This document shows, one piece after another, positions 15,688 through 63,397 of a stretch of DNA of 64,000 nt; position 1 is the stretch's first letter, and each line of letters starts with the position of its first letter. The DNA lies in assembly GCA_003140895.1 (NCBI GenBank), contig PLLH01000118.1, forward strand, positions 11,494 through 75,493, given 5' to 3'. The notes below the pieces were generated by a model. The model saw only the letters and a program-made list of their open reading frames with translations, ran no database searches and had not been told where the DNA came from. The position numbers and the translations under genes are program-made. The DNA is from Elusimicrobiota bacterium (GTDB lineage Bacteria > Elusimicrobiota > Elusimicrobia > F11).

Positions 15688-15873
15688 AATGATTTCTCCC
15701 GAAGGAAGGAATAAGCGAAACGATGAATTCGGCTCTTATTAAGGAGAGATTTTACTCGAGGGGTGGTTAAGATCGTCTTAAGAACCTGTAAACAACTAGT
15801 AAATTATATTCCCCTCTTGAAATAACCGCGTTTTTTGTTAGATTTAAGTGTAAGTTCAGCAGAGGAGTCATTC

Positions 15874-16164
15874 ATGTTTCAATTCATTAAAAAAGTAGTG
15901 AATTGGTTCAAAGGGGACGCGGTTCCGCCAGTCCAGGCTGCCGCCGAGACGTCTCGTAAGGTTGCCGAGGCAGCCGCTCAAAAAAGAACCCCGGCTCTCT
16001 CGCCAACGGAAGATGTGTATAGGAAAATTATTGAAGACGCTCGCGTGGGCGATTTTTTGAAAGAACTTCAGTCCATCCCCCCCGCTACAAAGGAATTTGA
16101 AAAGTCCAAAGAAAACATGGTTCAAGAATTAAAGAAACTGAAATCTCCGAAACCCCCTCAATAA
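15874..16164 (+). CDS. Small hypothetical protein (96 aa from the ATG at 15874).
   Basis: ATG preceded by GGAG (agaggagtcattcATG). Lys/Glu-rich with no recognisable motif. The ORF track starts earlier at 15835 but has no RBS there. Confidence 0.4.
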   Translation: MFQFIKKVVNWFKGDAVPPVQAAAETSRKVAEAAAQKRTPALSPTEDVYRKIIEDARVGDFLKELQSIPPATKEFEKSKENMVQELKKLKSPKPPQ

Positions 16165-16527
16165 ATGGCTTCCTCCGACCGCAGAGAATCAAACCGGTTT
16201 CAAACCTCCTTGCCCGTCGAGATTCGTTTCTCCCCGGACGGCGTTCCGATGCAGGGAAAAAGCCTCGACATCGGTCCGAACGGAATGAGGTTGTTGACGC
16301 TTCAGCCGCTGGTGGAAGCCACTCTGATTCACATTTCTTTTCAGAACGCTTCCAACAACACCCACTGCGAAGGGCGCGTGGTGTGGACGCAACGGTCGGA
16401 AGACAACACGGAATTTGAAAGCGGGGTTGATATTCAGCGGTGGGGTGGCGGTGTTCCCGGTTCCGACGTCATCCACGAGATCCCGGATCTAAAACAGAAG
16501 AAAGACCGCCGCAACAAGTCTCGTTAA
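16165..16527 (+). CDS. PilZ domain protein (c-di-GMP binding).
   Basis: RRESNRFQTSLPVEIRF ... GKSLDIGPNGMRL matches the PilZ RxxxR ... (D/N)xSxxG signature. 120 aa. Confidence 0.6.
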   Translation: MASSDRRESNRFQTSLPVEIRFSPDGVPMQGKSLDIGPNGMRLLTLQPLVEATLIHISFQNASNNTHCEGRVVWTQRSEDNTEFESGVDIQRWGGGVPGSDVIHEIPDLKQKKDRRNKSR

Positions 16528-16545
16528 GACAGCCTTCCTCCCATA

Positions 16546-19500
16546 TTACGTGTTCGGCAGTTCTCCCAATTCCTTGAGCGCTTCTTTCAGGTCGGCGTCG
16601 TGTTTGTGGCTTTCAAACCGGGCGAGAAGACTATAGACGCACGGAACGACGAGAAGAGTGAGAAGGGTTGAAACCAGAACGCCTCCAATAACCACGAGGG
16701 CCATGGGGACGCGCGTTTCGCCTCCCGGCCCCATCCCAATCACCGGCGGAATGGCCGCCGCGATGGTCGAAACGGACGTCATGAGAATGGGTCTCAAACG
16801 AATCGGACAGGCTTCCATGAGGGCTTCCCGCAAGGGCTGACCTTTCTTGCGCCGTTCGTTTGTGAAATCCACCAGCATGATGGAATTTTTCTTAACGATA
16901 CCCATGAGCAGAATCATGCCGATAAAACTGTAGAGGTTGATGGATTTATGCCCCAGCCAGAGGGCGATAAAAGCGCCCGTAATGCTGAACGGAAGCGCCA
17001 AAAGAACCGTGAAGGGATGCGTGAAGCTGTTGAATTGCGATCCCAAGACCATATAGGCCACGAGGATTCCCAGCGCGAGGGCCAAGAAAAGGCTCGTGAA
17101 GGAGTCTTTAAAGGTTTGCGCGCTTCCGGAAATAACCAGCCGGTACCCTTCGGGGAGGATTTCTTTTCCCATTTTTTGAACGGCGTCGATGGCTTCCGCC
17201 TGGGATTTTCCCTGAGCCACGTTGGCGAAAACGCCGATGGCCCTCTCGCGGTTGCGACGAGAAATCGAGAGAAGCGTCGGTTTCTCCGAGATGCCGACCA
17301 CCTCCGATAGCCGGATCACTTCGCCGCGGTTATTCCGAACCCAAATCTTATTGATGTCGCTGGACTTTTGGCGGAACTGTTCGGCAAAACGGACGCGGAT
17401 GTCATAGCGCTTACCGCCTCTCGTGAATTTCCCCACGCGAATGCCTCCGATGGACGCGTTGATCGCGTTGGCGATGGCCTGAATGCTCACGCCCCGTTCC
17501 GCCGCTTTCTGCCGGTTTGGGACCACTTTGACCTCCGGCATGCCCAATTGGTAATCCGTATCCACGTCCACCATGAGGCCGGAAGCGTTCATCTTGTCCA
17601 TGATTTGCTGGCTGAAACCGGCCATCTTGTCCCAGTCGCTTCCGCGAATCGTGAATTCAATCGGGAATCCGCGTTGAGAGGTAAACCCGGCCAGAGACAA
17701 ATCTTGAGTCACAGCCCGGAAGAGGCCCGGGATTTGTTTCAGGTCTTTCCGCGCTTGATTCATGAAATCCTGCTGGCTGAATCTCTTTTTAGCGCCGGGG
17801 CGAAGAGGCCGGTCTCCGGGTTCTTTGAGAGTCACGAAAACAAAACCTTGGTTAACGACGGCGCCTCCCATCCCCCCCACCGATCCAAAATAACGCATCA
17901 CTTCCGGCTGCGCGGTGAGGTAAGCCTCCACCTTCTTAAAAACATCGTCGGTGAATTCAATGGAGGAACCCACGGGCGTTTGAATTCGCAACATCAGAAT
18001 GCTTTGGTCTTGCGACGGGACAAATTCTTTTTTGAGAGGGATCCAAAGCGATAGGGAAGCGATGAACATCAAAACGGAGATTCCGATCACTTTCCACCGG
18101 TTGTCCAAGCATAGGTTCAAAATGCGGCGATACGTATTCGCCAGCCCCTTCATCCAGTGGTCCATTTGTTTCCCGATCCAGGTGGTATGGCCTGTCTCAA
18201 GGAATTGCGAGGTTCGCATGGGCGTCAGTGTGAGCGCTTCAAAAAGGGAGAGCATCACAGCGACGGAAATCGTCACTCCGTATTGAAAGAAGTATTTTCC
18301 GACAATCCCGCTCATGAACACGACGGGGATAAAAACAGCCAGGATGGCGATGGACGCCGCCATCGCGGCGAAGGTGATTTCTCTCGCACCCACCAGCGCC
18401 GCGTGAACCCGGCGCGCGCCTTCTTCTTTGTGCCGCACGATGTTTTCCAACACCATAATGGCGTCGTCCACGACGATTCCGATCACGAGCGTCAGCCCCA
18501 AAAGCGTGAAGGTGTTGAGAGTGAATCCGAGAAAATAGAGAACGATAAAGGTTCCCAGAATGGACGTGGGAATGGCCAGAATAATATTGAAGGCGGAACT
18601 AAAGGACCCCAGGAAAAGCCAACAGACGATCGACGTGAGGATGGCCGAGAGAATCAAATTGAAATTAAGTTCATGCGTGGAATCTTTGATGAATTTGGTG
18701 CTGTCGAAATTGACGTCCAGATGAATACCGTTTGGGAGATTCTTCTGAATTTGGGCGAGGCGCTCTTTGACGCGATTGGCGACGTCCACCGCGTTGGACC
18801 CGCGTTGTTTTTTGATGCCGATCCCGACGCCGGGAAGGCCGTTGGTCCGGGAAAACCGCCGGGCGTCCTCCAGCCCGTCTTCCACCTGCGCCACGTCTCC
18901 GATGTGAAATTTTTTCCAAATGGGTGAACCGCTCCGGCGCGGAATCACGAGAGTTCGGAATTCTTCGACGCTCGCGGCTTCGCCCATGACGCGGACGTTC
19001 AGTTCATTTCTCCCGGTATCGATCGTGCCGGCCGGGAGTTCCGCGTGTTCGGTGGAAATGGCCGATGTGACATCATCCACCGTGAGTTCATTTTTCTCCA
19101 TCTTGTCGGCGTCCAACCAGACGCGCAAGTTGGGTTCCAAATAGCCGCCCAGCGTGACTTCTCCCACGCCGGAGACGGTCGTGAACTGGTCTTTGACCAC
19201 GTCTTTTGTGTACTGCATGAGGTATTTCAAATCGCGGTTTCCGGAGAGGCCGAGCCACAGGATCGGTTGGTCTTCGGGGTTTGTCTTCGTCACAATCGGA
19301 GGATCGATGTCTTTGGGGAGGTTGCGCTGGGCCTGGGCGATTTTGGTTTGAATTTCCTGAAGCGCCGCGTCAATATCCCGGCTCAGTTCAAATTCAACGG
19401 AAATGGAGGTTTGCCCCTGGCGTGAGATCGATGAAATTTCTTTGACGCCCTGGACCTGGATCACGGCGTCTTCAATGGTGTCCGTCACTTCGGTTTCCAT

Positions 19501-19674
19501 TACTTCCGGAGACGCCCCTTCCCATGTGACCTGAACCGAGATGACGGGAAAGTCCACGTCGGGGAGCTGGCTGATGCCGAGGCGCGTAAAGCTCAACCAG
19601 CCGAAAAACATGAGCCCGAACATGAGCATCCAGGCGAAAACGGGATTTTTTATGGAGACGTCAGAGAGTGTCAC
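16546..19674 (-). CDS. RND efflux transporter permease (AcrB/HAE1 family).
   Basis: 1042 aa. N-terminus MTLSDVSIKNPVFAWMLMFGLMFFG is the typical AcrB opening. Two large periplasmic loops and 12 TM helices are evident. Start overlaps the OMF stop by 4 nt. Confidence 0.9.
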   Translation of the reverse strand: MTLSDVSIKNPVFAWMLMFGLMFFGWLSFTRLGISQLPDVDFPVISVQVTWEGASPEVMETEVTDTIEDAVIQVQGVKEISSISRQGQTSISVEFELSRDIDAALQEIQTKIAQAQRNLPKDIDPPIVTKTNPEDQPILWLGLSGNRDLKYLMQYTKDVVKDQFTTVSGVGEVTLGGYLEPNLRVWLDADKMEKNELTVDDVTSAISTEHAELPAGTIDTGRNELNVRVMGEAASVEEFRTLVIPRRSGSPIWKKFHIGDVAQVEDGLEDARRFSRTNGLPGVGIGIKKQRGSNAVDVANRVKERLAQIQKNLPNGIHLDVNFDSTKFIKDSTHELNFNLILSAILTSIVCWLFLGSFSSAFNIILAIPTSILGTFIVLYFLGFTLNTFTLLGLTLVIGIVVDDAIMVLENIVRHKEEGARRVHAALVGAREITFAAMAASIAILAVFIPVVFMSGIVGKYFFQYGVTISVAVMLSLFEALTLTPMRTSQFLETGHTTWIGKQMDHWMKGLANTYRRILNLCLDNRWKVIGISVLMFIASLSLWIPLKKEFVPSQDQSILMLRIQTPVGSSIEFTDDVFKKVEAYLTAQPEVMRYFGSVGGMGGAVVNQGFVFVTLKEPGDRPLRPGAKKRFSQQDFMNQARKDLKQIPGLFRAVTQDLSLAGFTSQRGFPIEFTIRGSDWDKMAGFSQQIMDKMNASGLMVDVDTDYQLGMPEVKVVPNRQKAAERGVSIQAIANAINASIGGIRVGKFTRGGKRYDIRVRFAEQFRQKSSDINKIWVRNNRGEVIRLSEVVGISEKPTLLSISRRNRERAIGVFANVAQGKSQAEAIDAVQKMGKEILPEGYRLVISGSAQTFKDSFTSLFLALALGILVAYMVLGSQFNSFTHPFTVLLALPFSITGAFIALWLGHKSINLYSFIGMILLMGIVKKNSIMLVDFTNERRKKGQPLREALMEACPIRLRPILMTSVSTIAAAIPPVIGMGPGGETRVPMALVVIGGVLVSTLLTLLVVPCVYSLLARFESHKHDADLKEALKELGELPNT

Positions 19675-21005
19675 GGGATATCTTCCACTGTGATGCGCAG
19701 ATTAATTTCATTGAGTTTAGTTCCCACCTGGATCCCGTCCCACTGTTGTTTGGTTTGCTCCATCGTGTTTAAGGCAGACAAGACTTCCAGATTGTTCACG
19801 AGTCCAAGGCGGTATTCTTTAACCTGGATCTCATAACTTTTCTTCGCTTTCAAATAGGCGTCGTGAAGAAAATCCGATTGCCGGAGTGAGGATTCGAGCG
19901 TGAGATGGACGCTCTTGACATCTGATTTGATTTGCCGCGTTAGCCGTTCCACATCCAACCGGGCCTGTTCATAAATGGAACGGGCTTCTTTGACGTTCGC
20001 GTTCACCAATCCCCCTGAAAAAAGAGGAAGGTTGATATTAAAGAGAAGATCCCATTTGATGGGTTCTAACGATCCGTCTCTCGTTGTGTAATAATTTCCA
20101 ATGACGTCGGCGGCCGGCCAATGATCGCTTTGCGCGATGCGAATGGCGTACCTTTGCGCGTCCATTTCTTCTTTTACGGCCATCAAATCAGATCTCTCCA
20201 ACGCTTTTTTGACGGCGTCGTCGAGAGAGAGAAGGGAGGTGGGGCTGTCCAAATCAGATTGGAGCGGCGTGTCGCCGATTTCTTTCCCCGTCAAAAAGGA
20301 GAGGAGATTTCGGGCGATCGCGATGGCGCTTAAATCGCTTTCCCTATTGGAAAGAAGAGAGGAAAGTTGTGAATCGGCGCTGAGCAATTCGCTTTCACGG
20401 GATTTTCCCAGATTGATCCGCTGTTTCAATTCCGCAATTCGTTCCTGGGTGAGTTGAATAAAGGATTCCACGTCTTTGAGATCGATTTCCAATCGAACAA
20501 TGAGGAAATACGTTTGCGCTACATCCTGATAAAGGAGAAGAGAGGCTCGTTTATAAAGTTGTTTTGATTTTTCCGTTTCGAATTTGGAGCCTTTCATCGC
20601 GGCAAATTCTTTGAACCCTCGAAAGAGAGGTTGGCTTGCCGTGAACTTGGATAAGGTCGTTTCTCGCCGGGCGTTGGCGGGGTTGTTGTGTGTGTCGACG
20701 TCCTGGATCAGGCTCGATACGTTGAATTTCAGATTGGGAAGAATGGTGCTGAGGGCTTGGTTGTACCGTGTTTCGGCTTGAAGAATGTTTTGAGCGCTAC
20801 TTTTTAGAGTTTCGCTCTGCGCCAACGCCAGTTCGTAACACGCCTTCAGCGTGAACGCTTTCAGCGTGAGCGCTTTAAGCGTGAGCGGGGCGGCAGGCGA
20901 ATTCTGAGACGGTTGGGAGGCGTCTCCGGTGGAGTCGGTTGGAAGAAGAGCGACGAGGCTCAAGACGGCCATAAACAAGAGCGGCCGACCCCATTTGTGT
21001 TTCAC
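19671..21005 (-). CDS. Outer membrane efflux protein (TolC-like OMF).
   Basis: 444 aa with a signal peptide and the coiled-coil/beta repeat pattern of OMF proteins. GTG start at 21005 overlaps the carB stop by 1 nt. Confidence 0.8.
   Translation of the reverse strand: MKHKWGRPLLFMAVLSLVALLPTDSTGDASQPSQNSPAAPLTLKALTLKAFTLKACYELALAQSETLKSSAQNILQAETRYNQALSTILPNLKFNVSSLIQDVDTHNNPANARRETTLSKFTASQPLFRGFKEFAAMKGSKFETEKSKQLYKRASLLLYQDVAQTYFLIVRLEIDLKDVESFIQLTQERIAELKQRINLGKSRESELLSADSQLSSLLSNRESDLSAIAIARNLLSFLTGKEIGDTPLQSDLDSPTSLLSLDDAVKKALERSDLMAVKEEMDAQRYAIRIAQSDHWPAADVIGNYYTTRDGSLEPIKWDLLFNINLPLFSGGLVNANVKEARSIYEQARLDVERLTRQIKSDVKSVHLTLESSLRQSDFLHDAYLKAKKSYEIQVKEYRLGLVNNLEVLSALNTMEQTKQQWDGIQVGTKLNEINLRITVEDIP
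20841..20885 (-). repeat. In-frame 15-bp x 3 tandem repeat inside the OMF gene. It encodes TLKAL/TLKAF/TLKAC just after the signal peptide.
   Basis: cgccttcagcgtgaa / cgctttcagcgtgag / cgctttaagcgtgag. Confidence 0.85.
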
Positions 21006-24000
21006 TATGATTTCCTTAAGGGTGACACGTTCTTAGACGTCGTGGTCTTCGAATTTGTGTTACCAGAATCCGATGAATCCAGAAGCCGGTAGTAATCCTG
21101 AAGAGAACGAATGGTCCACGCCGTTTTCTGCAGGGAATCAATGGCGGTCGTGGCGGCTTCGGCGGCGGCCAGCGTTGTGATAATGGGGAGCCCCGCGGCC
21201 AAAGCGGCGTTACGAATGGCAAATCCATCCGACCTTGAATGCGCGGCGGAGGGCGTGTTGATCACGAGGGTCACTTCGCGGTTTGTGATGATGTCCACGA
21301 CATTGGGCCGGCCTTCGGCGATTTTCCGTACGGTTTCAACCGGGATATTGGCTTCTTTGAAAGCGGCGGCGGTCCCTTCGGTGGCAATGAGCGTGAACCC
21401 GAGTTTGGTCAGGCGTTCGGCGATCCCGATGGCTTTGTGCCGCGTCGATTTTTCGAGGCTGATCAATACTTTCCCCTTGGTGGGAAGCGGAGACCCCGCG
21501 GCCGCTTGAGATTTGGCGTACGCCGATGGAAAACTATCCGCGATGCCCATCACTTCTCCGGTGGACCTCATTTCAGGTCCGAGGACGGCATCGACGCCGG
21601 GGAACCTTGTCCAAGGAAGAACCGCTTCCTTGATGGACGTCCATTGAGGCTTAAATCCTTTTTTGCGGACGTGCGCCGGGAGAACCTCGGACAGTTTTTT
21701 GCCCAACATCAGCTTCGCGGCCAGTTTCGCCAACGGGACTCCGGTCGCTTTCGAAACAAACGGGACCGTGCGGCTCGCGCGCGGGTTCACTTCCAAAATA
21801 TAAATGACGTTGTCTTTGATGGCCAACTGCATGTTCATGAGCCCTTTCACTTTGAGGGCTTTGGCCAGGGTTTTGGTGTAGTGCTCGATGGTGTCCATGG
21901 TTTCTTTGGAGAACCGCCGGGAGGGAAGAACGCAGGCGGAGTCGCCGGAATGAATTCCGGCGGCTTCGATGTGCTCCATGACGCCGCCGATGTAGGTTTC
22001 CGTTCCGTCGGACAAAGCGTCGACGTCCACTTCCATGGCGTTATCAAGAAATTTGTCGATCAAGACCGGATGATCCGGCGAAACTGTTGTGGCGCGGTTG
22101 ATGTAGGACTCCAGCATGTTTTCGTCGTAGGCCACCTCCATGGCGCGCCCCCCCAACACATACGAGGGGCGGAGCATGACGGGGTAGCCGATTTTATTGG
22201 CGACGTTGCGCGCTTCTTCAAAGGAACGGGCCACGCCGTGGGGCGGTTGGGGAATGCCCAGTTTGCTGAGGAGCTGGCCAAAACGGCCCCGGTCTTCGGC
22301 CAGGTCGATGGAATCGGGAGAGGTTCCGAGAATGTTGACGCCCGCCGCTTCGAGGGGAAGCGCCAGGTTCAGCGGCGTTTGCCCGCCGAATTGAACGATG
22401 ACCCCTTTCGGCCTTTCCTTTTCAATGACGTTCAACACGTCTTCCAGCGTGAGAGGCTCGAAATAGAGGTGGTCGGCGGTGTCGTAGTCCGTCGAGACGG
22501 TTTCCGGGTTGCAATTGACCATGATGGTTTCGTATCCGTCTTCCCGAAGCGCCAGGACGGCGTGCACGCAGCAGTAGTCAAATTCAATTCCTTGTCCGAT
22601 GCGGTTGGGCCCCCCTCCCAGAATCATGACCTTCGTTTTTTTCGACGGGCGGGTTTCGTCTTCTTCGCTGTAGGTGGAATAATAATACGGCGTGTAGGCT
22701 TCGAATTCGGCGGCGCAGGTGTCCACCAGATTGTACACCGGCAGAATTTTGAGTTTTTTCCGGAGGGCCCGCATACTCTTTTCCGTCTGGCCCAGAAGAT
22801 ACGCCAGCTGGATGTCGGAGTACCCGAGTTTTTTGGCCTCCAACAGAAGCTCCCCGCTGATGACGCCGGCCCCTTCCTTTTTGTTTTTGACGCTCTCAAG
22901 GAGAGATTCTTCAAAACGGGCGAGCTCGTTGATCTGAGCGATGAACCAGGGGTCTATTTTCGACAAATTGAAAATTTCCTCTTCGGAGACTCCCAACTGA
23001 AGAGCCCCCTTCACGGCGAAGAGCCGGTCTGAATTCGGGATTCGGATTTTTTCCCGGAGCGTGGTCAGGAGGCCGGAGTATTTTTGGCTCCAGGCTTCCT
23101 GGCTCAATTTCAGTTTTTCTTTCAGGGCCTGATCGAATAAAGGATTGATGGCTTTCCCGTCGGAGCCGAGCCCGGCTCGTCCAATTTCCAACCCTCGGAA
23201 GGCTTTCTGGAGAGCTTCTTTAAAGTTTCGTCCGAGCGCCATCACTTCGCCGACCGATTTCATTTGAGTCCCGAGTTGCTGGCTGCTGGCGGAGAATTTT
23301 TCAAAAGCGAACCGAGGCACTTTGACCACGGTGTAATCGATGGTCGGTTCAAAACAGGCCGGGGTTTTCTTCGTGATGTCGTTTGAAATCTCATCTAACC
23401 GGTAACCAATGGCCAGGAGCGCCGCCATTTTGGCGATGGGAAACCCGGTGGCTTTGGACGCCAGCGCGCTGGACCTCGAAACCCGTGGATTCATTTCGAT
23501 GATCACCATGCGGCCGTTTTTGGGATTGACGGCGAATTGAACGTTGGACCCGCCCGTCTCGACGCCGATCGCGCGAATGCAGGTAAAGGCGGCGTCCCTC
23601 ATCCGTTGATATTCGCGGTCTGTCAGCGTCATGGCCGGCGCCACGGTGATGGAATCGCCGGTGTGAACCCCCATGGGGTCGACGTTTTCAATGGAGCAGA
23701 TCACGATGCATTGGTCGGCGTGATCGCGCATGACTTCCAACTCAAATTCTTTCCATCCTTCGAGGGATTCCTCAATCAACACTTCGCTGATGGGGCTGAG
23801 CTGGAGCCCCCGTGAGGCGGCGCTCAAAAACTCATCCCGCGTATAAACCAGCGACGAACCGGACCCCCCCAACGTGAACGACGGGCGAATGATGAGAGGG
23901 AATCCGATCATCTGCGATATTTCTTCGGCTTCCGTCAGATTTTTGGCGAAACCGCTGCGAGGCAAATCCAAGCCGGCTTCTTCCATGGTTTTCTTAAACA

Positions 24001-24391
24001 GGCGCCGGTCTTCGGCTTTGTGGATGGCGTCCAATTTGGCGCCGATCATTTCCACGTTGTATTTTTCGAGGGTGCCTCGTTTGGCCACTTCCACTGAGAG
24101 ATTGAGCGCCGTTTGCCCCCCGAGCGTGGGGAGAAGCGCGTCCGGGCGTTCCTTTTCAATAATGGATTCAAGAACTTGAGGCGTGAGAGGCTCGATGTAG
24201 GTGCCGTCCGCCAGTTCCGGATCGGTCATGATCGTGGCCGGATTGGAGTTGATCAGAATCACGTTGTACCCTTCTTTCTTGAGGGCTTTCACGGCCTGGG
24301 TTCCGGAATAGTCGAATTCACAGGCTTGGCCGATCACAATCGGGCCAGAGCCGATAATCAACACTTTTTTGATGTCAGTTCGTTTGGGCAT
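21005..24391 (-). CDS. carB: Carbamoyl-phosphate synthase large subunit.
   Basis: 1128 aa. Two ATP-grasp halves ([33 protein letters not shown] ... second half [25 protein letters not shown]) and an MGS-like C-terminus. Confidence 0.95.
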
Positions 24392-24412
24392 AGGAGTTAA
24401 AAAGGTTTCCTT

Positions 24413-25678
24413 TTAGTTTGTTTTCGAGTCCATGAGTTTTAAAAATCGATCGAACAGATGCCGTGCGTCGTGCGGGCCGGCGGAGGCTTCGGGATGATAC
24501 TGAACGGAAAAGAGAGGCAAGTCCCGGTGCCGGAGTCCCGCGATGGAAAAGTCGTTTAGATTGACGTGCGTGCAAATGATTTCTTTGTTTCCTTTGAGCG
24601 CCCACGTGTCGTCCTTTTGTTTTTCTCCTTCGACGGCGAATCCGTGGTTCTGGGTCGTGATGTCCACGCGTCCGGTTTCCACGTCTTTGATGGGATGGTT
24701 GGCCCCGTGGTGGCCGAATTTGAGTTTGAAGGTTTTGCCGCCCAGCGCCAAGCCCAACATCTGATGGCCGAGGCAGATTCCAAAAATCGCGAACCCTTTT
24801 TCCCCCTTCTTTTGACGGGTGAGGTTGTAGTCGATCAAATCTTTGATGGTGCCGATGCCGGTCGTGACGGCGGCGGGATCGCCCGGGCCGTTTGAAATCA
24901 TGATGCCGTCGGGTTTCAAATTCAAAATCTCGGAGGCCGGTGTGTTTGCCGGAACGACCGTGACGTCGCAGTTCCGATCCACGAGACAACGGAGGATGTT
25001 TTGTTTCACGCCGAAATCCATCACCACGACTTTCCGGCGGGAATATTTCGTTGGCGTCGTATTTTTGCCGGAGTCGATCTTCTCCCTCCACTCTCCCGAC
25101 CCGTGAGTCCATTCGTACGGCTTATCCGCCGTCACAACGTGAGTCAAATCCTGGCCTTCCAGGCTTGGAATGGCCTTTGCCTTTTTGATGAGGGTTTTCA
25201 CATCTGTTCCGTCCGTTGAAATAAGACCGTTCACGGAGCCTAATTCTCGTAGGTGCTTCGTCAGGGCGCGCACGTCAACGCCGGTCATCCCCGCCACGCC
25301 CGCCTTGGATAAATAGGCGTCCAGCGTTTCGTTGGCCCTCCAATTAGAGGAGATGTTGCTCAGTTCTTGAACAACGAACCCGGAGAGAAAAATCCGGCGC
25401 GATTCCATGTCTTCAGGGTTGATTCCGTAATTTCCGATATGAGAGGCCGTCATGGCGACGATCTGCCCTTGATACGACGGATCCGTCAAAATTTCCTGAT
25501 ACCCGCTTAGCGAGGTGTTAAAAACCACTTCACCGGTTGCAGGCCGACTGTCTTTCTTTCCGCCAGGAATGGCACCGCCGGGAATGGCGCCGCCGGGAAT
25601 GGCGCCGAAGCTCCATCCGGTGAAGACGCGTCCGGTGGCTAAGACGAGAACCGCTTTGGCGCGTTTTACTGAAGCCAC
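24413..25678 (-). CDS. carA: Carbamoyl-phosphate synthase small subunit (glutamine amidotransferase).
   Basis: GEVVFNTSLSGYQEILTDPSYQGQIV and a class-I GATase C-terminus (GICLGHQ). Contains a 3x GAIPG insertion. Confidence 0.95.
   Translation of the reverse strand: MASVKRAKAVLVLATGRVFTGWSFGAIPGGAIPGGAIPGGKKDSRPATGEVVFNTSLSGYQEILTDPSYQGQIVAMTASHIGNYGINPEDMESRRIFLSGFVVQELSNISSNWRANETLDAYLSKAGVAGMTGVDVRALTKHLRELGSVNGLISTDGTDVKTLIKKAKAIPSLEGQDLTHVVTADKPYEWTHGSGEWREKIDSGKNTTPTKYSRRKVVVMDFGVKQNILRCLVDRNCDVTVVPANTPASEILNLKPDGIMISNGPGDPAAVTTGIGTIKDLIDYNLTRQKKGEKGFAIFGICLGHQMLGLALGGKTFKLKFGHHGANHPIKDVETGRVDITTQNHGFAVEGEKQKDDTWALKGNKEIICTHVNLNDFSIAGLRHRDLPLFSVQYHPEASAGPHDARHLFDRFLKLMDSKTN
25562..25606 (-). 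repeat. In-frame 15-bp x 3 tandem repeat inside carA. It encodes GAIPG x3 inserted in an N-terminal loop.
   Basis: ccaggaatggcaccg / ccgggaatggcgccg / ccgggaatggcgccg. Confidence 0.85.
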
Positions 25679-26961
25679 GGGAAGTCCTTATCAAGGATGA
25701 GGGTTTCTTCGCGGCTTTTTCCCATGGAAACCAAGGCGCATTTGGCGTCGACGGCTTTTTCGATTTCTTTCACGAATCGCCGGGCTTCCAACGGGAAGGC
25801 TGAGAAATCCTTCAGCTCTCGCAGATTGCCTTTGAATCCGCGGAAGTTTTTGTAAATCGGAACGCTATTCGCTTGCAGCGTCCGGCTGACGGGGAAGTTG
25901 CTCAGCGTTTTGCTCCCCACTTTATAACCGACGCAGATGCGGATGGGATCGAGCCCTTCCAAAACGTCCAATTTTGTCAGCGCGAAGCGTTTAATCCCAT
26001 TGATTCGGAAGGCGTGTTTGACGACCAATGCGTCAAACCAGCCGCACCGCCGACGCCGGCCGGTTGTGGCGCCGAACTCCTGTCCTTTGGATTGAAGATA
26101 GTTGCCTTCGGCGCTGTTCAACTCCGTCGGGAACGGGCCGTCTCCCACGCGCGTCGTGTAAGCTTTGATGACGCCCAAAACCTCATCGATGTAGCGGGGG
26201 CCCACTCCGGCGCCGGAACACGCTCCTCCCGCGATCGGGTTAGACGATGTGACGTACGGGTAGGTCCCGAAGTCCACATCCAACATCGTTCCCTGCGCGC
26301 TTTCGAAGAGCATGCGTTGATCTTTCTTGATGGCGTTACTGAGAAGAATTGTGGTGTCGGTGGCGAATTGCTCCATGAAATCCCGGAGTTCCCGGTAGTC
26401 CTTCATGATCTCCTGCCGAATTTGCTTGATGGGTTTCACTTGCGAGAGAAGCGGTTCTTTCTCCTTCAGATTTTGATCGAGCAGGGTTTGGAAGAGCTCC
26501 GGTTCCAGATAATCCGCGACGCGGATGCCGGTTCGTCCCACTTTGTCGGAATAGGCGGGGCCGATTCCTTTGCGGGTTGTTCCGATGGCGCCGGATTTGG
26601 AGGCGGTTTCCCGGAGCGTATCCAAGTATTTGTGATAGGGAAGGATCACATGGGCGGCCAGGGACACGTAGAGGCGTCCGCGCACCTTGATTTTTCGATT
26701 TTCAAAAAATTCCACCTCTTCTTTGAAGGCGGCCGGATCGATGACCAGGCCGTTTCCCAGGACGCATTTTTTCCCGGGTTCTAAAATACCGGACGGAAGT
26801 AAGTGAAGCACGAAGTGCTTTCCGTCGAAAACAACCGTATGGCCGGCGTTGTTTCCGCCCTGATATCGAACGATGTAATCCGAATTTTTTCCGATGAGAT
26901 GAACGATTTTCCCTTTTCCTTCATCTCCCCATTGCGCTCCGATGACGACTAAAGATGGCAT
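25666..26961 (-). CDS. purA: Adenylosuccinate synthetase.
   Basis: MPSLVVIGAQWGDEGKGKIVHLIG ... GNNAGHTV ... typical PurA motifs. 431 aa. Overlaps carA by 13 nt. Confidence 0.95.
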   Translation of the reverse strand: MPSLVVIGAQWGDEGKGKIVHLIGKNSDYIVRYQGGNNAGHTVVFDGKHFVLHLLPSGILEPGKKCVLGNGLVIDPAAFKEEVEFFENRKIKVRGRLYVSLAAHVILPYHKYLDTLRETASKSGAIGTTRKGIGPAYSDKVGRTGIRVADYLEPELFQTLLDQNLKEKEPLLSQVKPIKQIRQEIMKDYRELRDFMEQFATDTTILLSNAIKKDQRMLFESAQGTMLDVDFGTYPYVTSSNPIAGGACSGAGVGPRYIDEVLGVIKAYTTRVGDGPFPTELNSAEGNYLQSKGQEFGATTGRRRRCGWFDALVVKHAFRINGIKRFALTKLDVLEGLDPIRICVGYKVGSKTLSNFPVSRTLQANSVPIYKNFRGFKGNLRELKDFSAFPLEARRFVKEIEKAVDAKCALVSMGKSREETLILDKDFPWLQ

Positions 26962-27566
26962 TAGTTCATAACCCCCAATTTTTTTAAATCCTGCACGAGT
27001 TGTACATAATTTTGATAGTGAATTCCGTTCATCCCCACGGCATTGGCCGAATCGATGTTGGCGGAAAGATCGTCAATAAAAACCGTCTCGGACGGCTCGA
27101 CTCCGAATTTCGAAATTGCCATTTTATAAATCGCGGGGTCTGGTTTTCGGACCCCCACCTCATTCGAGAGCCACAGATGGTCGAAGACCTGCATGATCGG
27201 ATAGGTTTTGAGAAGATGCGCGACGTGAATCGCGTTGGTGTTGGAAATAAGGCCCAGTTTGCAGGTCTTTTTGATTTGAGTCACGAGAGTGGAAACGCGT
27301 TTGTCTTCGTCAAAAATGTCATTAAAAATGGGGACAAATTCATCCAACGTTAGGTTCGTGATATCGCATGATGTTTTGATGTGCGCGAAGAAATCCGCGG
27401 GGCTCACTTTTCCCATCTCGAAGTTCTCAATAATGTGGTGGTTCCAGAACGATTCTAAAATACGATCCGGAGTTTGCTTGCAATATCGGGTGAGGACATT
27501 GGCCATACGAAACCCATCCACCGGCAAGATGACGTTGCCGAGGTCGAAATAAACCGCTTTTATCAT
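26961..27566 (-). CDS. HAD-superfamily hydrolase.
   Basis: MIKAVYFDLGNVIL (DxG motif I) ... VFIDDLSANIDSANAVG (motif IV). 201 aa. 1-nt overlap with purA. Confidence 0.7.
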   Translation of the reverse strand: MIKAVYFDLGNVILPVDGFRMANVLTRYCKQTPDRILESFWNHHIIENFEMGKVSPADFFAHIKTSCDITNLTLDEFVPIFNDIFDEDKRVSTLVTQIKKTCKLGLISNTNAIHVAHLLKTYPIMQVFDHLWLSNEVGVRKPDPAIYKMAISKFGVEPSETVFIDDLSANIDSANAVGMNGIHYQNYVQLVQDLKKLGVMN

Positions 27567-27683
27567 GTTGATTGTGTTCGGAGAACTCCTTTGTTGTGCT
27601 GCCCAAAACGATATTCTTCAGGCGGGAGAGAAGCCTAGCAAACGCTCTTTAGGGCGTCAATTGGGTCTCGTTTTTCAGAGGAG

Positions 27684-30506
27684 GTGTCGAAGGCGGCCGC
27701 GATCAAGGACGAAAACAAAATGGTGTTTCTCGTCGTGAATTTTGTTATAGTTCTTTCTATGGGGAGGAAATCCTATCTATCAAGCGGGTGTATCTCTGTT
27801 CTTTTGCCGCTTCTCTTTATCCTGCCTTCTTTCTCCCTCGTCAAGGTTGAACCCGAATTAACGTCCGAAACGATTGAGTCTCTTCAGAACCTCCCTCACG
27901 GTATCGGCAACCAGTCTTCCCTATTAATAAGGACCAAACATGTGGATTCTGTTGGTTTTTCAGGGGGAGGGGCCTTTAGCCAATACGGTTACACGCATGT
28001 TGAAGGGGTGGCTCAGACCGGGTTATGGCTTCGCCTCATCAACAAAGGGTCGTCTTGGTCCAGTGGAAGCATCAGTTTCCGGAAGGCCTTTGATCTTTCC
28101 AGGTACAATTCCGCGGTGATTTGGGCCCGGTCCCTCCAGCCAGGGCAAAAAATCATGTTGATTCTTCAGGATTCCAACTGGGTTCAAGGCGATACGCCTC
28201 AAGCGATCTCAGCCCCCTTCCCATCTCAAGGTTTTCCCAAAAATCAAATCGTCCAATTGGTTATTCCCTTTAGCTCGATTAAGGCCAATAAAGGCATCGA
28301 TTATTCTTCCATTCAACGGGTGGGGTTTGAGTTCGGTCACAAGACGGCGGGGAACGCGTTGACGAATGAAATTGAAATTATTGGTGTGTCCTTTGTCTCT
28401 CAGACGGAAGAGTTAAGCGGGCCCGTGTTGGTAGGATTGAAAGGAACGGATTCTCAGAAAACGGTTCAAGCGGACGCGCCGCCTCCGGTGGTGGCGGCGC
28501 GAAAGGCGCCGGAAGCAAAACCTGTCATTAAGAAGGCGGAAGAGAACGTTAAAGTCATTCAGCTGGCAGCTCAAAAAAAAGAGCCGTCCGCGCCTCTTCC
28601 CCCCCCCGCTCACGAGAAGAACGTGGTTCGGACCATTCAGGCCCCGCTCCTTCAGAAACCCGTCGCGGCCAAAGCGCCGGTGGTTCAACAGACCGGGACA
28701 GTCAGCGGGATTAAACCGGTTGTGGCTCCTGCCGCCCCGGCGATTGCCGCCCCGGCGGGGGCCGCCCCGGCCATGAACGTCCTCCCGAAAAGCTTAAGGG
28801 TTGATGCTTTCACACCGGTTTTATTAGGCCTTAAAGACGATGTTGAAAAAATCCGGACCGCGGTTTCGTCCGCTGTGATGCAAATGGTCAACCGCATTCA
28901 TTGGCGGTTGGTGGGGATCGTTGCGGCCCTTCTCGCGGCGTTGTTAGGTCTTGTTTTCCTGGCGAGATTCCTTAAAACCTCTTTCTCTTCAGAGTGGACC
29001 TTGGAAAAAGTGATTCATGAAATTCGCTGGCCGCACACGTTGGACGGCGAGTCAAGCCACGCCCGGGAACAGAAAAAGTTTTGGAGGGAGTTGAGCCTGA
29101 TGGGCGTGAAACAAGGGTGGCTTTCCCCGTTCCAAGCGTCGTTTGATAAGCCCAGCTCCACCGCGGAGCCCTCCTCCGGATCCTTATCAACCGGTTCCGC
29201 CGAGCCGTCCCAAAAAGAATCATCGCTTGAGGAGTATCGAGGCGAGATGTTCCTTTATCGCCAACGTGGTTTTGCCGAGCAGGCTGGCGTTGAAATGATT
29301 CCGAGCTTCTGCTTTGTTCGAACGCTGTTTCATTACGAAACGTTTTTGGCGAACCCCAAACTTTACCTGATTAAACACGTGCCGGTGTCCGATCGGCATT
29401 TTAGCGACGAAGAGTTGCGAATCAAAAACATCGGATTTTTCCCCGTGTGGATCCCCCCCTTCTGGCAGAAGCAACATGAGCTGCCGGAGCGAGTCCTGGT
29501 TCCGTATGGAAAGCTCCCGGGCGTCATGGTGTCGAACGACAGCATTCAATTTAACTTGGCCACGCCGGAGCTGCGGACGTTCGCTATTTCTGTTTTGGAA
29601 CGATGCGCCGCCCGGGCTGACGCGGTCCGCATTGAAGGAGCGGCGGCGATGCTCAATTCCTTTATCCGCCGTTACTGGCGCGGGTCGATTCCGAGTATCC
29701 GCGCCGTTCAACGGACCGAGTTTTGGACGGACGTCATCGGCGCCGTGAAGGAAAAATTCCCCAAATTCGTGATGATCGCCGACGGGGCCGGTTCTGAAGG
29801 GCAAAAGCTTCTTGAACTGGGATTTGACCGGTTTGAGAACAATCACCTTCGGGATATCATCGTGAATCAGATCCGCCTGGAGTCCGTCGGTAATTTGGTC
29901 AACGCCCTGCAGGGAGAGGCGGTCCCCTTCCTGGATAAATCCATTTATAATTTGACGCCGCTCACATCCTCGGAACAATTCGTCGTCGAGATGTCCCGTA
30001 AACAAAATCTTCTTTGCTGTTACGTGTTGGCGCTCCTTCCCGGGAATATTTCAATCGACAACCGGATTCCTCATGACCTCGATGAGTTTTTGAAGATTGT
30101 CTCAAAATTGCCTGTCATCAAGCGGGGCCGTTTTTCACTCCTGCAAACATCCTCAACGTCTGTGATGGGGATCGCTCGGTGGGACCAACAGGTCCTCTCC
30201 GTTGCCGTCGTGAATTTCTCGATGACGCAGCAAGATCTCTCGGTTCGTTTTGACCCGGTCCAGAGCGGGTTTAGCGATAAAAAATTATATTTGTTCAGCG
30301 ATATGCTTCATGGCACTCCTTTTCGCCGGAACCTCCCCGCGAGTTCCTCCGACAAGCCGGCCATCACCGTTTTGGGGGAGGACTTGCGCGAATCAGGACT
30401 CACCTTGACCTTGCCCCCCCTCGGTATCAAAATGGTCTCCGTCCCTATGTCCAGTCCCATTCACGATGAACCTTCTTCAGAACTACGCCAAGTTCATAAA
30501 GCTTGA
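27684..30506 (+). CDS. Large membrane-anchored protein. In order: signal/TM; CBM-like beta-sandwich domain; Pro/Ala/Lys-rich linker; TM helix; divergent alpha-amylase-family-like (TIM-barrel) C-terminal domain.
   Basis: 940 aa. An alternative start is at MGRKSYLSS (27759). The linker is PPPVVAARKAPEAKP...VAPAAPAIAAPAGAAPA. TM helix WRLVGIVAALLAALLGLVFLARFL. C-domain motifs ADAVRIEGAAAM (resembles GH13 region II) and FENNHLRD (resembles region IV). The 3' end overlaps the mqnP-like gene by 41 nt. Confidence 0.55.
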   Translation: MSKAAAIKDENKMVFLVVNFVIVLSMGRKSYLSSGCISVLLPLLFILPSFSLVKVEPELTSETIESLQNLPHGIGNQSSLLIRTKHVDSVGFSGGGAFSQYGYTHVEGVAQTGLWLRLINKGSSWSSGSISFRKAFDLSRYNSAVIWARSLQPGQKIMLILQDSNWVQGDTPQAISAPFPSQGFPKNQIVQLVIPFSSIKANKGIDYSSIQRVGFEFGHKTAGNALTNEIEIIGVSFVSQTEELSGPVLVGLKGTDSQKTVQADAPPPVVAARKAPEAKPVIKKAEENVKVIQLAAQKKEPSAPLPPPAHEKNVVRTIQAPLLQKPVAAKAPVVQQTGTVSGIKPVVAPAAPAIAAPAGAAPAMNVLPKSLRVDAFTPVLLGLKDDVEKIRTAVSSAVMQMVNRIHWRLVGIVAALLAALLGLVFLARFLKTSFSSEWTLEKVIHEIRWPHTLDGESSHAREQKKFWRELSLMGVKQGWLSPFQASFDKPSSTAEPSSGSLSTGSAEPSQKESSLEEYRGEMFLYRQRGFAEQAGVEMIPSFCFVRTLFHYETFLANPKLYLIKHVPVSDRHFSDEELRIKNIGFFPVWIPPFWQKQHELPERVLVPYGKLPGVMVSNDSIQFNLATPELRTFAISVLERCAARADAVRIEGAAAMLNSFIRRYWRGSIPSIRAVQRTEFWTDVIGAVKEKFPKFVMIADGAGSEGQKLLELGFDRFENNHLRDIIVNQIRLESVGNLVNALQGEAVPFLDKSIYNLTPLTSSEQFVVEMSRKQNLLCCYVLALLPGNISIDNRIPHDLDEFLKIVSKLPVIKRGRFSLLQTSSTSVMGIARWDQQVLSVAVVNFSMTQQDLSVRFDPVQSGFSDKKLYLFSDMLHGTPFRRNLPASSSDKPAITVLGEDLRESGLTLTLPPLGIKMVSVPMSSPIHDEPSSELRQVHKA

Positions 30507-31308
30507 ACACACGCTGTTTTCGATTCCGCTGATCCTCTCTGGGGCTCTTTTAGCGGAGCGAGGGTGGCCTTCTCCGATGTCTCTCCTGTTGATTTTCCTC
30601 GCGGCGGGCGGAGCGCGGACGTTCGCTTTGTGCCTGAACCGGATTATCGACCGGAACATCGATCGACAGAATCCACGAACGAAAGACCGCCCGTTGGCCA
30701 ACGGGTCCATGTCGCTCCTTGAAGCGTGGCTCTTGGCCGCTGTTTCCATCATTATCTATTTGGCGGCGGCGAAATCATTGTCGGGATTTTGCTTAAAATA
30801 TTCATGGATTCCGCTTGTGGCGTTTACGATTTATCCCTATTTCAAACGGTTCACCAAGTGGAGCCATATCGGCCTTGGATTGGTTTGGTCTTTAATTCCG
30901 CTGTCGGGATTTTTTGCGGTTAAGCCGGCGTTTGATGGATTGGGCGCGGTTTTGATGCTGGCGCTCTTTAGCCTCTTTTGGCTGGCGGGATTCGATATTA
31001 TCTATTCCACGTTGGATGAGGATTTTGATCGGGAAGCCGGGCTCCATTCTCTCCCCTGCGCGTGGGGAAGCGAGCGGGCGCTTAAATTGTCGGGCACGTT
31101 TCATCTCATTTCGTTTATGGTTTTGGTGGTGCTTTATGGCGTGTGGTTGGGGGGTCCCGTGACGGTGATGTTCTTAGGTATCATCGGTATTCTTCTTTAT
31201 CTTGAACAGCAATTCGCCAATTACGTCGATTTGTCCTTCTTTAAAATGAACGTGGCCATCGGCTTCGCCGTTTTCTTTTTTATCTGGTCGGGGCTTAAAG
31301 GGGTATGA
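30466..31308 (+). CDS. UbiA-family prenyltransferase (MqnP-like 1,4-dihydroxy-6-naphthoate prenyltransferase).
   Basis: 280 aa polytopic protein with NRIIDRNIDRQNPRTKDRPL (first Asp-rich motif) and a DxxxD-like second motif. Confidence 0.8.
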   Translation: MNLLQNYAKFIKLEHTLFSIPLILSGALLAERGWPSPMSLLLIFLAAGGARTFALCLNRIIDRNIDRQNPRTKDRPLANGSMSLLEAWLLAAVSIIIYLAAAKSLSGFCLKYSWIPLVAFTIYPYFKRFTKWSHIGLGLVWSLIPLSGFFAVKPAFDGLGAVLMLALFSLFWLAGFDIIYSTLDEDFDREAGLHSLPCAWGSERALKLSGTFHLISFMVLVVLYGVWLGGPVTVMFLGIIGILLYLEQQFANYVDLSFFKMNVAIGFAVFFFIWSGLKGV

Positions 31309-31309
31309 C

Positions 31310-31858
31310 ATGAGAACAGTGGTTGGGTTAACGGGAGCCTCGGGCGCGGCGGTGGCCGTCGATTTTTTGAAACGTTGCCCCGGCGAGAAGTATCTGATTT
31401 TGTCCCGCTGGGGGAAGTCCGTTCTCTTTCAGGAAACAGGGCTCACGCCGGAAAATCTGGCTCCTTATGTGGATCACATTTTTTCGAATGACGATATGAA
31501 CGCGCCTTTCGCGTCCGGTTCCGTTTCATTCGATCAATATGTGATTCTCCCGTGTTCGCTCACAACTCTCGCTCGGTTGGCGGGCGGCATTGGAGAGAAT
31601 TTGATTTCCCGCGTCGGAGAGGTGGCTCTTAAAGAGAACCGCCGAATGCTCTTGGGCCTTCGGGAATCCCCTCTCTCCGCGATCGCTCTTGAAAACGCTC
31701 TCAAGTTGTCCCGCCTCGGCGTCACGATCATGCCGTTGTCGCCCGCTTTTTACTTGCAACCCAAATCCGTCGATCAAATGGTGTCTGATTTTGTAGATCA
31801 TATTTTTTCCGCGCTTCATCTGCCGTCGAAACAAGGGTGGCGAGAAGAATTGATTTAA
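31310..31858 (+). CDS. UbiX-family flavin prenyltransferase (MqnL-like).
   Basis: MRTVVGLTGASGAAVAVDFLK is the typical UbiX/Pad1 N-terminus. 182 aa. Confidence 0.85.
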   Translation: MRTVVGLTGASGAAVAVDFLKRCPGEKYLILSRWGKSVLFQETGLTPENLAPYVDHIFSNDDMNAPFASGSVSFDQYVILPCSLTTLARLAGGIGENLISRVGEVALKENRRMLLGLRESPLSAIALENALKLSRLGVTIMPLSPAFYLQPKSVDQMVSDFVDHIFSALHLPSKQGWREELI

Positions 31859-33633: not shown

Positions 33634-33670
33634 TAGTCTATATCCAACGCACTCCTACGGAGGTGCTCCC

Positions 33671-34774
33671 ATTCTGATCAAAGATTCCTCCCTATTCCCC
33701 CTCTGGAAAAAAGTCCAGGACGGCCAGCGCCTCACCTTTGAGGAGGGGCTGGTTCTTTTCTCCACCGATGATATTTTGGGTCTCGGTCACATGGCCAATT
33801 GGGTGAAGGAAAAAAAGACCGGAAACCACGGCTTCTTTGTCGTCAACCGCCAGATCAATCCGACCAATATCTGCGTTTTATCCTGCCGTTTTTGCGATTT
33901 CGCCAAGAAAAAGACCGATCCGGCCGCCACCGTTATGAGTGACGACGCCATTGTGGCCGCGTGCAGCCCCGAATTGACGGAAGTCCATATCGTGAGCGGT
34001 CTCTATAGCGGATGGCGGTTTGACCAGTATCTGAACGTCATTCACCTTATTAAAGCCAACTATCCCCATATTCAGGTCAAAGCGTACACGGCGGTGGAGA
34101 TTGAGTTTTTTGCCCGCATCGAAAAGATTTCCATCAAAGAGGTGTTGGAAAAAATGAAAGCGGCCGGAGTCGTGTGTATTCCGGGAGGTGGGGCGGAGGT
34201 GTTTAGCGAACGGGTTCGGAAAGCCTTGTTTCCCTTTAAGATTGGAGCCCGAACCTGGCTTGACGTGCATCGGACCGCTCACTCCATCGGCCTTAAATCG
34301 AACGCCACGCTGCTTTACGGGCATATGGAGACCGTTGAGGAGCGGGTGACTCATATGTTGAAACTCCGAGAACTGCAGGATGAGACGCACGGGTTTCTCT
34401 CATTTATTCCGTTGGCGTATCAACCGGGCACCACGAAGGTGGTGGAACGGCCGGCGTCGGCGCTGGACGATTTGAAAACAACGGCGGTCTCACGGCTCCT
34501 CTTGGATAATTTTGTTCACATCAAAGCGTATTGGGTGACGATGGGCGAGCAGATGGCCTCCGTCGCCCTTCATTTCGGCGCCGATGACATCGACGGGACG
34601 ATTGGCGAGGAAAAAATCATGCATGCGGCCCGGGCGTCGTCCCCGGTCGCGATGGCGCGCGAGAGGATGGTGAGTCTCATTCGGGAAGCCGGGCGCCACC
34701 CCATTGAGAGGGACGCCCTCTACAACGTTGTGGCCTCTTATGACGAAGCGGACCGCGTCGCGGTGATTCCATGA
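33671..34774 (+). CDS. Radical SAM menaquinone (futalosine pathway) enzyme, MqnC/MqnE family.
   Basis: NICVLSCRFCDF CxxxCxxC cluster motif and GGGAE region. The start is uncertain: no canonical start lies between the UbiD stop and the first in-frame ATG at 33791. The ORF track extends the frame back to 33455, inside the upstream gene. Confidence 0.75.
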   Translation: MLIKDSSLFPLWKKVQDGQRLTFEEGLVLFSTDDILGLGHMANWVKEKKTGNHGFFVVNRQINPTNICVLSCRFCDFAKKKTDPAATVMSDDAIVAACSPELTEVHIVSGLYSGWRFDQYLNVIHLIKANYPHIQVKAYTAVEIEFFARIEKISIKEVLEKMKAAGVVCIPGGGAEVFSERVRKALFPFKIGARTWLDVHRTAHSIGLKSNATLLYGHMETVEERVTHMLKLRELQDETHGFLSFIPLAYQPGTTKVVERPASALDDLKTTAVSRLLLDNFVHIKAYWVTMGEQMASVALHFGADDIDGTIGEEKIMHAARASSPVAMARERMVSLIREAGRHPIERDALYNVVASYDEADRVAVIP

Positions 34775-35559: not shown

Positions 35560-35561
35560 TT

Positions 35562-51850: not shown

Positions 51851-51876
51851 GAAAGCCTCTTTACGCCGGACTCGAA

Positions 51877-61942: not shown

Positions 61943-61957
61943 ATCTCATGGGGTCGA

Positions 61958-63392: not shown

Positions 63393-63397
63393 GAAAA

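Follow-up and report, generated by a model that had tools for sequence, protein, structure and literature searches.

In a stretch of 64,000 nucleotides (nt) from an Elusimicrobiota bacterium (GenBank assembly GCA_003140895.1, contig PLLH01000118.1, positions 11,494 to 75,493 of the forward strand; the whole stretch is called the window below), six genes follow each other head-to-tail on the minus strand, and the last two code for a TolC-type outer-membrane factor (OMF) and for a resistance-nodulation-division (RND) permease. Judged from sequence, this pair belongs to an efflux cassette of two genes that is widespread and self-contained and in which the gene for a TolC-type channel is followed by that for an MdtB/C-like RND pump and no gene for a periplasmic adaptor, or membrane-fusion protein (MFP), is present. 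The absence of the adaptor is a defining, conserved property of a large clade and no local oddity. Periplasmic adaptors, which are also drug targets, are regarded as indispensable in Gram-negative efflux, where they link the pump to the channel, bring about the opening of the latter and stimulate the former; to our knowledge, every tripartite efflux and type I secretion assembly is taken to require one. No description of adaptor-less OMF-RND cassettes was found in the full-text literature, the coverage of which was partial, and an earlier description is possible.

Distribution of the channel-pump pair and search for an adaptor

Related loci were located by an OMF-centred scan of species-representative genomes, in which the second periplasmic tip of the window channel (EYRLGLVNNLEVL) served as search pattern and a 14-sequence subset of the OMF alignment was employed, the 49-sequence alignment being too diverse. 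Among the 80 loci obtained, 32 belong to Elusimicrobiota, 32 to Gamma- and other Pseudomonadota (chiefly Sulfurifustaceae, Acidiferrobacterales, Sulfuricaulis and 'Muproteobacteria'), 5 to Bdellovibrionota and 3 to 'Deltaproteobacteria', the others including Methylomirabilis and Acidobacteriota; OMF homologues in the database listing were mostly from Elusimicrobiota. When adjacency was counted over 84 distinct loci, the N-terminus of an RND pump was encountered at the OMF stop in 77, and 73 of these 77 junctions lay within -30 to +60 nt, with space for an MFP gene in none. At 55 of the 77 junctions the two genes overlapped (ATGA in 46 cases, GTGA in 8 and TTGA in 1). Of the seven exceptions, one lies at a contig end, one is frameshifted and one is an inversion, and the other four are OMF genes without an adjoining pump. 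A metagenome scan centred on RND genes (pumps of 27% to 62% identity) added 8 adaptor-less OMF-RND pairs, each scoring above 1000 bits to the window RND, which brings the adaptor-less cassettes to 85 in total. Pump identity ranges from 48 to 94% across the clade, and the window pump is 68% identical both to an Elusimicrobia pump (locus L003) and to one from Pseudomonadota (L029); the 8000 database candidates that were scored for the RND all had E ≤ 1e-50, and the best 120 of these 8000 were all at least 63% identical. As the divergence of the channels is correlated with that of the pumps (Pearson 0.86) and pump identity of this range extends across phyla, the pair travels as a unit.

The genes around the pair vary from locus to locus. 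Regulators encoded directly upstream are TetR proteins at 11 loci, the commonest upstream neighbour, MarR proteins at 6 loci and an ECF sigma/anti-sigma pair in L003. Those relatives that were looked up stand in different contexts (ECF sigma/anti-sigma, TetR, GDSL-like, PMT_2 glycosyltransferase), all with adjacent OMF and RND genes and no MFP. Two Elusimicrobia loci (L028, 9920-20263; L057, 5231-14937) carry tandem OMF-RND-OMF-RND arrays without an adaptor, followed by a gene for an M48 (HtpX/CAAX-type) peptidase; the second pump of L028 belongs to another, more distant group of RND proteins and likewise has no adaptor. In three independent sequences (L107, 8221-9999, and the proteins P0008 and P0031), open reading frames (ORFs) of 571-592 amino acids (aa) comprise a MarR domain, a signal-peptide-like stretch (RRTLTRFWLVPFLLLAALPVRA/EQ) and a complete OMF, with no stop between the domains, and represent either a real membrane-tethered regulator-channel precursor or a case of an internal start.

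No MFP gene was detected in the 64-kb window, either by Pfam searches of all genes or by a hidden Markov model (HMM), built from 10 E. coli MFPs, that was run over all stop-to-stop ORFs, in agreement with the first-pass annotation, which had reported that no MFP lies beside the pump. An earlier phmmer screen with AcrA, MdtA and CusB as queries lacked sensitivity and passed over a MacA-like adaptor in L017. Over the 1.36 Mb that surround the cassettes, the HMM detected two MFPs only, both linked to ABC systems (the MacA-like one of L017, 1e-28, and another, 8e-26), and no RND-type adaptor was found within about 10 kb of any of the 85 cassettes. As a positive control, this HMM was applied to the RND-centred metagenome contigs, where 54 RND genes outside the cassettes proved to have an adaptor gene as direct neighbour, in the order MFP-RND in 48 cases and RND-OMF-MFP in 6, and therefore the absence of adaptors beside the cassettes is far beyond chance. 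Neither the window nor the 85 cassettes show the arrangement of a tripartite system with the adaptor encoded together with the RND gene. Also, no HlyD/MFP family was recognized by Pfam among 120 flanking ORFs and 30 selected neighbours, and clustering of the neighbours revealed no conserved third gene, as no neighbour family occurred in more than 10 of about 75 loci. Candidates for a cryptic third component, namely a GDSL-like protein (L004), an LTXXQ/Spy-like protein (L003), small unknown ORFs (L008) and the M48 peptidase (L028 and L057), were dropped as not conserved. The L017 locus, from Elusimicrobia, continues (15760-20062) with genes for an MFS_3 transporter, a second OMF, the MacA-like adaptor and a MacB ABC pump, so that adaptors exist in at least one cassette-bearing genome, for an ABC system.

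Pump crown and channel tip

The RND permease has the full-length ACR_tran architecture, with 12 transmembrane helices and two large periplasmic loops that form the porter and docking domains, and its Pfam match spans positions 2-1020 of 1021. Its best sequence match among PDB structures is MdtB (3e-148), and its NCBIfam matches stay under the cut-offs (best RND_permease_2, 931.6 bits against 1250; TIGR00915, 638 against 940); we classify it as belonging to a divergent clade within the HAE1 family. The AlphaFold2 (AF2) model of the pump (pLDDT 83) has a template-modelling (TM) score of 0.89 to AcrD/AcrB, and no indel longer than 6 aa separates it from AcrB. As the residues of the proton relay (AcrB D407/D408/K940/R971/T978) are identical in the window RND and invariant in 48 of 48 family members, the pump looks active.

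The OMF has the attributes of the TolC family, that is, two OEP repeats, a signal peptide, a four-strand share of the barrel and long alpha-barrel helices. Its AF2 model (pLDDT 91) displays a TolC fold, each protomer contributing four beta strands and, as in TolC, two helices of 67 residues, and Foldseek matches it to TolC, OprM, CusC and VceC with TM scores of 0.7-0.78. Canonical G-L/V turns are not found on both repeats, tip 2 being canonical (LGL) and tip 1 reading LGKSR. An extended channel or pump standing in for the adaptor was rejected on the basis of helix lengths and indel maps, and anchoring of the OMF as a lipoprotein was rejected as well, there being no lipobox and the context of the conserved Cys55 being unsuitable. 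This cysteine (window ~20841-20843) lies in the first mature helix within the motif TLxxCYxxAL and is kept in more than half of the family (alignment A1).

Two features distinguish cassette proteins from their relatives. In the pumps, the segment bounded by the counterparts of AcrB G257 and D264 is 10-11 aa long in 58/58 cassette members; its length is 6 aa in 5/5 relatives with a linked adaptor and in 15/15 outgroups, AcrB and MdtB among them, which means that the crown hairpin is 4-5 aa longer in all 58 cassette RNDs and in none of the 20 others; in two cassette-like pumps without a detected adjacent channel gene, one of them at a contig end, it measures 11-13 aa. The hairpin carries a conserved Pro-Ile/Val-Trp/Tyr across cassette pumps and is modelled in the window RND as a beta hairpin (243-247/250-257, AF2). 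In the channels, tip 1 reads G[KR]SR in 51 of the 58 OMFs of cassettes and shows close variants of it in the remaining 7, and it reads G-[LVITSA] in 3/3 adaptor-linked relatives and 7/7 canonical OMFs (including TolC and CusC); the G[KR]SR type is thus found in 58/58 cassette OMFs versus 0/10 others, and alignment A2 shows no variation at G200, S202, R203 and E206 of the window OMF. Early direct-docking work reportedly placed cross-links at the hairpin tip of AcrB (Q255-G257) and at the turn glycines of TolC, and it is with the G-L/V turn that the channel meets the adaptor hairpins. Both changes sit where pump and channel would touch under direct docking, and the later invariance of the crown and tip features shows selection.

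Compared with AcrAB-TolC and MdtABC-TolC, the cassette shares the full AcrB fold, the identical proton relay and a best match to MdtB on the side of the pump, and the TolC fold with its 67-residue helices on the side of the channel, so that it is presumably a proton-driven trimer exporting via a trimeric channel. It differs from these systems in that none of the 85 cassettes has an adaptor gene beside the pump, in the linkage of the RND gene to an OMF rather than an MFP gene, in the longer crown hairpin, in G-(K/R)-S-R instead of G-L/V at tip 1 and in its sub-cut-off NCBIfam scores.

The pumps with more than 1000 bits to the window RND include those of five or six operons of canonical type (MFP-RND or OMF-MFP-RND), the adaptors of which are MdtA-like lipoproteins. 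In neighbor-joining trees, cassette pumps and these adaptor-containing relatives group in a single clade (100% bootstrap), remote from other RNDs; when BLOSUM62 distances were used, the lineages with an adaptor were nested within the cassettes, and with Kimura distances they lay outside a monophyletic cassette clade (65% bootstrap). The OMF-MFP-RND operons (metagenome loci L109, L111-L113, L118 and L119), the pumps of which share the RND clade with the cassettes and are 50-55% identical to the window pump, have the same gene order except for the middle gene, but differ by the MdtA-like lipoprotein adaptor encoded between channel and pump, by the 6-aa crown hairpin and by a G-L tip 1. Their adaptor family is named in records from Acidobacteriota and Aminicenantes. 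Because an adaptor accompanies every outgroup RND in the trees and the middle gene is the sole difference in gene order, the simplest history is descent of the cassette from an OMF-MFP-RND operon by loss of that gene, which probably happened once and was followed by a large radiation.

Proposed direct docking and alternative arrangements

Direct docking without an adaptor, by which the pair would be an autonomous two-component pump whose RND crown contacts and opens the channel, is the reading that we prefer and in our estimate as probable as all other explanations together. The RND trimer would dock straight onto the OMF trimer, the lengthened crown hairpins of the docking domain (DN), in which Pro-Ile/Val-Trp/Tyr is conserved, would touch the channel at its altered G-(K/R)-S-R tips, and this contact would bridge the periplasm (about 70 Å plus 100 Å) and open the channel, two jobs that are normally those of the adaptor hexamer. 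That the cross-phylum RND clade as a whole might constitute a two-component trans-envelope machine, which has dispensed with the adaptor by means of its crown hairpins and a redesigned tip, is a proposal to which we give a little less than an even chance. The detoxification and envelope-stress contexts of the relatives suggest amphiphilic toxic compounds as substrates. The first-pass annotation had offered two options, an MFP encoded elsewhere or a pair that functions differently; both stand, and the second gains weight from the correlated changes in the crown of the RND and the tip of the OMF. If direct docking is true, a natural pair without an adaptor means that nature does employ the 'direct docking' architecture, an idea long abandoned; alternatively, the cassette is a systematic arrangement with an adaptor that acts in trans or is non-homologous. 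The cassette is tractable in that it consists of two genes in 4.5 kb, with close adaptor-containing relatives as controls and two small candidate contact motifs, and for the cassette-bearing genomes, which come from groundwater, sediment and wastewater, counts of adaptor genes under-estimate efflux capacity.

Several points weigh against direct docking. It is established that the RND-OMF assemblies studied so far all need an adaptor and that contact between AcrB and TolC is not seen in in situ structures (see the reviews PMC8277102 and PMC6570770). Both proteins are of ordinary dimensions, without a large extension, and tip 2 of the OMF keeps the canonical turn of the adaptor-binding type. The closest relatives carry an MdtA-like adaptor, so the pump lineage is adaptor-competent, and the two features and the loss of the adaptor may lie on a single ancestral branch and then count as one event, not as 58. 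Finally, the co-transcription of carB with the OMF gene, which is described below, is deduced from sequence.

A normal tripartite pump, with the adaptor supplied in trans from a gene elsewhere and possibly shared with another RND system, is a possibility to be taken seriously, albeit one that we consider distinctly below even chances. There is a precedent in Enterobacteria, where AcrD, AcrA and TolC are all encoded at separate loci and the acrD gene, like the cassette RND genes, adjoins no adaptor gene (PMC8277102). However, AcrD has no linked channel gene, occurs in one bacterial order and depends on AcrA (PMC8277102), whereas the cassette channel is linked and the clade spans phyla; an orphan of the AcrD kind, with neither adaptor nor channel adjacent, is not what was found, since the channel gene adjoins or overlaps the pump gene in the 77 of 84 loci mentioned above. 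The adaptor of the closest relatives, the canonical turn of tip 2, the standard size and fold of both proteins and the genome of L017, which does encode an adaptor, albeit for a MacB-type ABC pump, would all be expected if an adaptor acted in trans. The HMM result around the 85 cassettes argues against this, as does the conserved OMF-RND linkage, which is the reverse of the usual MFP-RND one. Furthermore, cassettes have regulators of their own and were duplicated in tandem without an adaptor, the two-gene unit has crossed phyla, which is hard if a specific host adaptor is needed, and the G-L turn of the adaptor-contact type has been replaced at tip 1 in all members. The adaptor family of the OMF-MFP-RND relatives had no match on cassette-bearing contigs among the best 120, which is a weak test. 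A precedent for departure from the docking of adaptor hairpins to the channel is BesABC of Borrelia burgdorferi, in which BesA is without the alpha-hairpin (PMC8277102), although BesA is present and encoded with its pump, whereas the cassettes are without any adjoining adaptor gene.

It is improbable that pump and channel are physically uncoupled, the RND exporting to the periplasm and the channel releasing independently, or that a non-homologous, unrecognised protein bridges them. Neither protein has a structural extension, and individual loci are flanked by many unannotated small ORFs, as would fit such arrangements. However, no flanking family is common to more than 10 of about 75 loci, the 4-nt overlap at 55 of 77 junctions and the correlation of divergence point to a stoichiometric, co-evolving pair, and it is precisely the crown of the pump and the tip of the channel that have changed.

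The six-gene unit and its surroundings

The six genes of the unit are listed in Table 1 together with the contact sites discussed above. The gene families were assigned by Pfam and the junctions were read from the sequence, and both bear out the first-pass annotation, which had described six minus-strand genes with overlapping or closely spaced starts and stops. The start codon of purA overlaps the stop of the HAD gene by 1 nt (TAATG), and purA and carA overlap by 13 nt, the carA start being GTG 25678, inside purA, the sole start codon 5' of the conserved CarA N-terminus. A spacer of 21 nt containing AAGGAA ahead of the carB ATG separates carA from carB, the carB/OMF junction is TAGTG (1-nt overlap), and the OMF and RND genes overlap by 4 nt (GTGA), the RND start being GTG. 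In public gene calls the OMF starts at ATG 20972, which results in a protein of 433 aa and a gap of 33 nt after carB; GTG 21005 is preferred, as the protein predicted from it has a proper signal peptide, basic in its n-region (MKHKWGRPLLFMAVLSLVALLP), and AAGGAA is located 9 nt upstream.

Table 1. Genes of the six-gene unit, its upstream region and the candidate contact sites of pump and channel (window coordinates)
Feature	Position	Strand	Family or remark
HAD-family phosphatase, 201 aa, first gene	26961-27566	-	Pfam Hydrolase/HAD_2; NCBIfam matches at subfamily level only
purA, adenylosuccinate synthetase, 431 aa	25666-26961	-	Pfam Adenylsucc_synt, 554 bits
carA, carbamoyl-phosphate synthase small chain, 421 aa	24413-25678	-	Pfam CPSase_sm_chain and GATase
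carB, carbamoyl-phosphate synthase large chain, 1128 aa	21005-24391	-	Pfam CPSase_L_D1/D2/D3 and MGS
OMF, TolC-type outer-membrane factor, 444 aa from GTG 21005	19671-21005	-	Pfam OEP (two)
RND permease, HAE1 / MdtB-MdtC type, 1042 aa	16546-19674	-	Pfam ACR_tran, 946 bits
Divergent intergenic region, 117 bp, likely operon promoter region	27567-27683	-	
RND docking-domain (DN) crown hairpin, residues ~248-257, SGSPIWKKFH	18904-18933	-	4-residue lengthening
OMF periplasmic tip 1, L199-E206, LGKSRESE	20388-20411	-	G-(K/R)-S-R motif
OMF periplasmic tip 2, E397-L409, EYRLGLVNNLEVL	19779-19817	-	Canonical G-L turn, strongly conserved

A sequence scan detected no terminator-like site at any of the gene junctions, and promoter-like sites within the operon occurred at the frequency expected by chance. 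The genes thus share one strand, overlapping or abutting stop and start codons and the absence of terminators between them, as expected of a single operon, and it is plausible that the six genes form one tightly packed, co-transcribed unit. Translational coupling of the six, which the first-pass annotation had asserted, is likewise plausible, because all gaps are 21 nt or less, terminators are absent and Shine-Dalgarno sites lie within the upstream genes. The 117-bp region 5' of the HAD gene is the only sizeable non-coding stretch of the operon; AAAGGAG as a Shine-Dalgarno sequence precedes the HAD ATG, and a weak TTGACG-17 nt-TAGGCT (27660-27632) was read by eye, which the promoter scan did not list since its -10 hexamer matches at only 3/6 positions. 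An Rfam search of the operon found no riboswitch or leader RNA.

The linkage of the cassette to carB is best seen as a lineage-specific capture, peculiar to this genome and incidental, with no metabolic link. In none of about 85 related loci does carB lie upstream of the OMF-RND pair, including the closest relative, with an RND 83% identical to that of the window, in which a stand-alone OMF-RND pair follows a divergent Zip transporter gene. A comparison of synteny, which had been suggested as a check, therefore gave no second case of the carB-OMF order. The fusion of biosynthetic and efflux genes had been singled out as atypical; it is so in the sense of being seen only here, but it does not hold as the main feature of the locus, being absent from the about 85 relatives in which the adaptor-less pair is conserved. 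Another relative has the MarR-OMF ORF at its cassette, and the window cassette has no regulator of its own. As the cassette landed behind carB and lost its regulator, it is probably expressed constitutively with nucleotide and arginine biosynthesis, and it would be an example of a mobile efflux cassette captured by a housekeeping operon. An ancestral promoter retained in the carB tail was looked for, but the tail does not resemble the sequence that lies upstream in the closest relative.

That the association of HAD-purA-carAB with the cassette reflects a functional link, for instance export of a by-product of the nucleotide or arginine pathway, is highly improbable. All six genes are tightly coupled in this genome, but the carB linkage recurs in no related locus, and the contexts elsewhere are mutually unrelated (TetR, MarR, ECF sigma, GDSL-like, M48 peptidase). 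An artefact or decay, in the form of a chimeric junction in the assembly or of what is left of a degenerating tripartite operon, has in its favour that the DNA comes from a metagenome assembly, but this explanation is practically negligible, given that the carB-OMF-RND order is identical in two independent assemblies (ENA and Logan), which rules out mis-assembly, and given the intact ORFs, the invariant proton relay, the confident models and the pump identities within the clade and among the best 120 of 8000 database relatives, which indicate purifying selection.

Some further observations concern the biosynthetic enzymes and the flanking genes. CarA contains a tandem peptide insertion (GAIPG, three times) directly after the conserved N-terminal strand (window ~25560-25615, minus strand), and CarB ends in a low-complexity tail of about 25 aa that runs up to the OMF start (21005-21090, minus strand) and may be former intergenic sequence. 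Directly downstream of the pump (1420-15687, minus strand) lies a giant ORF of 4755 aa with PPDK_N and GNAT acetyltransferase domains; giant ORFs also occur near the OMF-RND pairs of relatives, namely in L003 (16275 to the end, 6046 aa, with PPDK_N, PEP-utilizers and enolase) and in L105 (19345 to the end, 8096 aa, no Pfam match). Divergent from the operon (27684-30506, plus strand) is a 940-aa ORF with no Pfam or NCBIfam match. The regions 30466-36764 and 44626-52863 hold a cluster for menaquinone synthesis by the futalosine route (UbiA, a flavoprotein, UbiD, two radical-SAM CofH_C proteins and VitK2_biosynth) and a BatA-D/MoxR/DUF58 operon, an ordinary context. At the end of the window (63322-64000, minus strand), a tRNA-Gly(CCC) gene is directly followed by the gene for a phage-type integrase, which is truncated at the window end and beside which two unknown ORFs and a TonB-dependent receptor gene are found (60053-63348); the tRNA-Gly/integrase region may be the edge of an integrated element.

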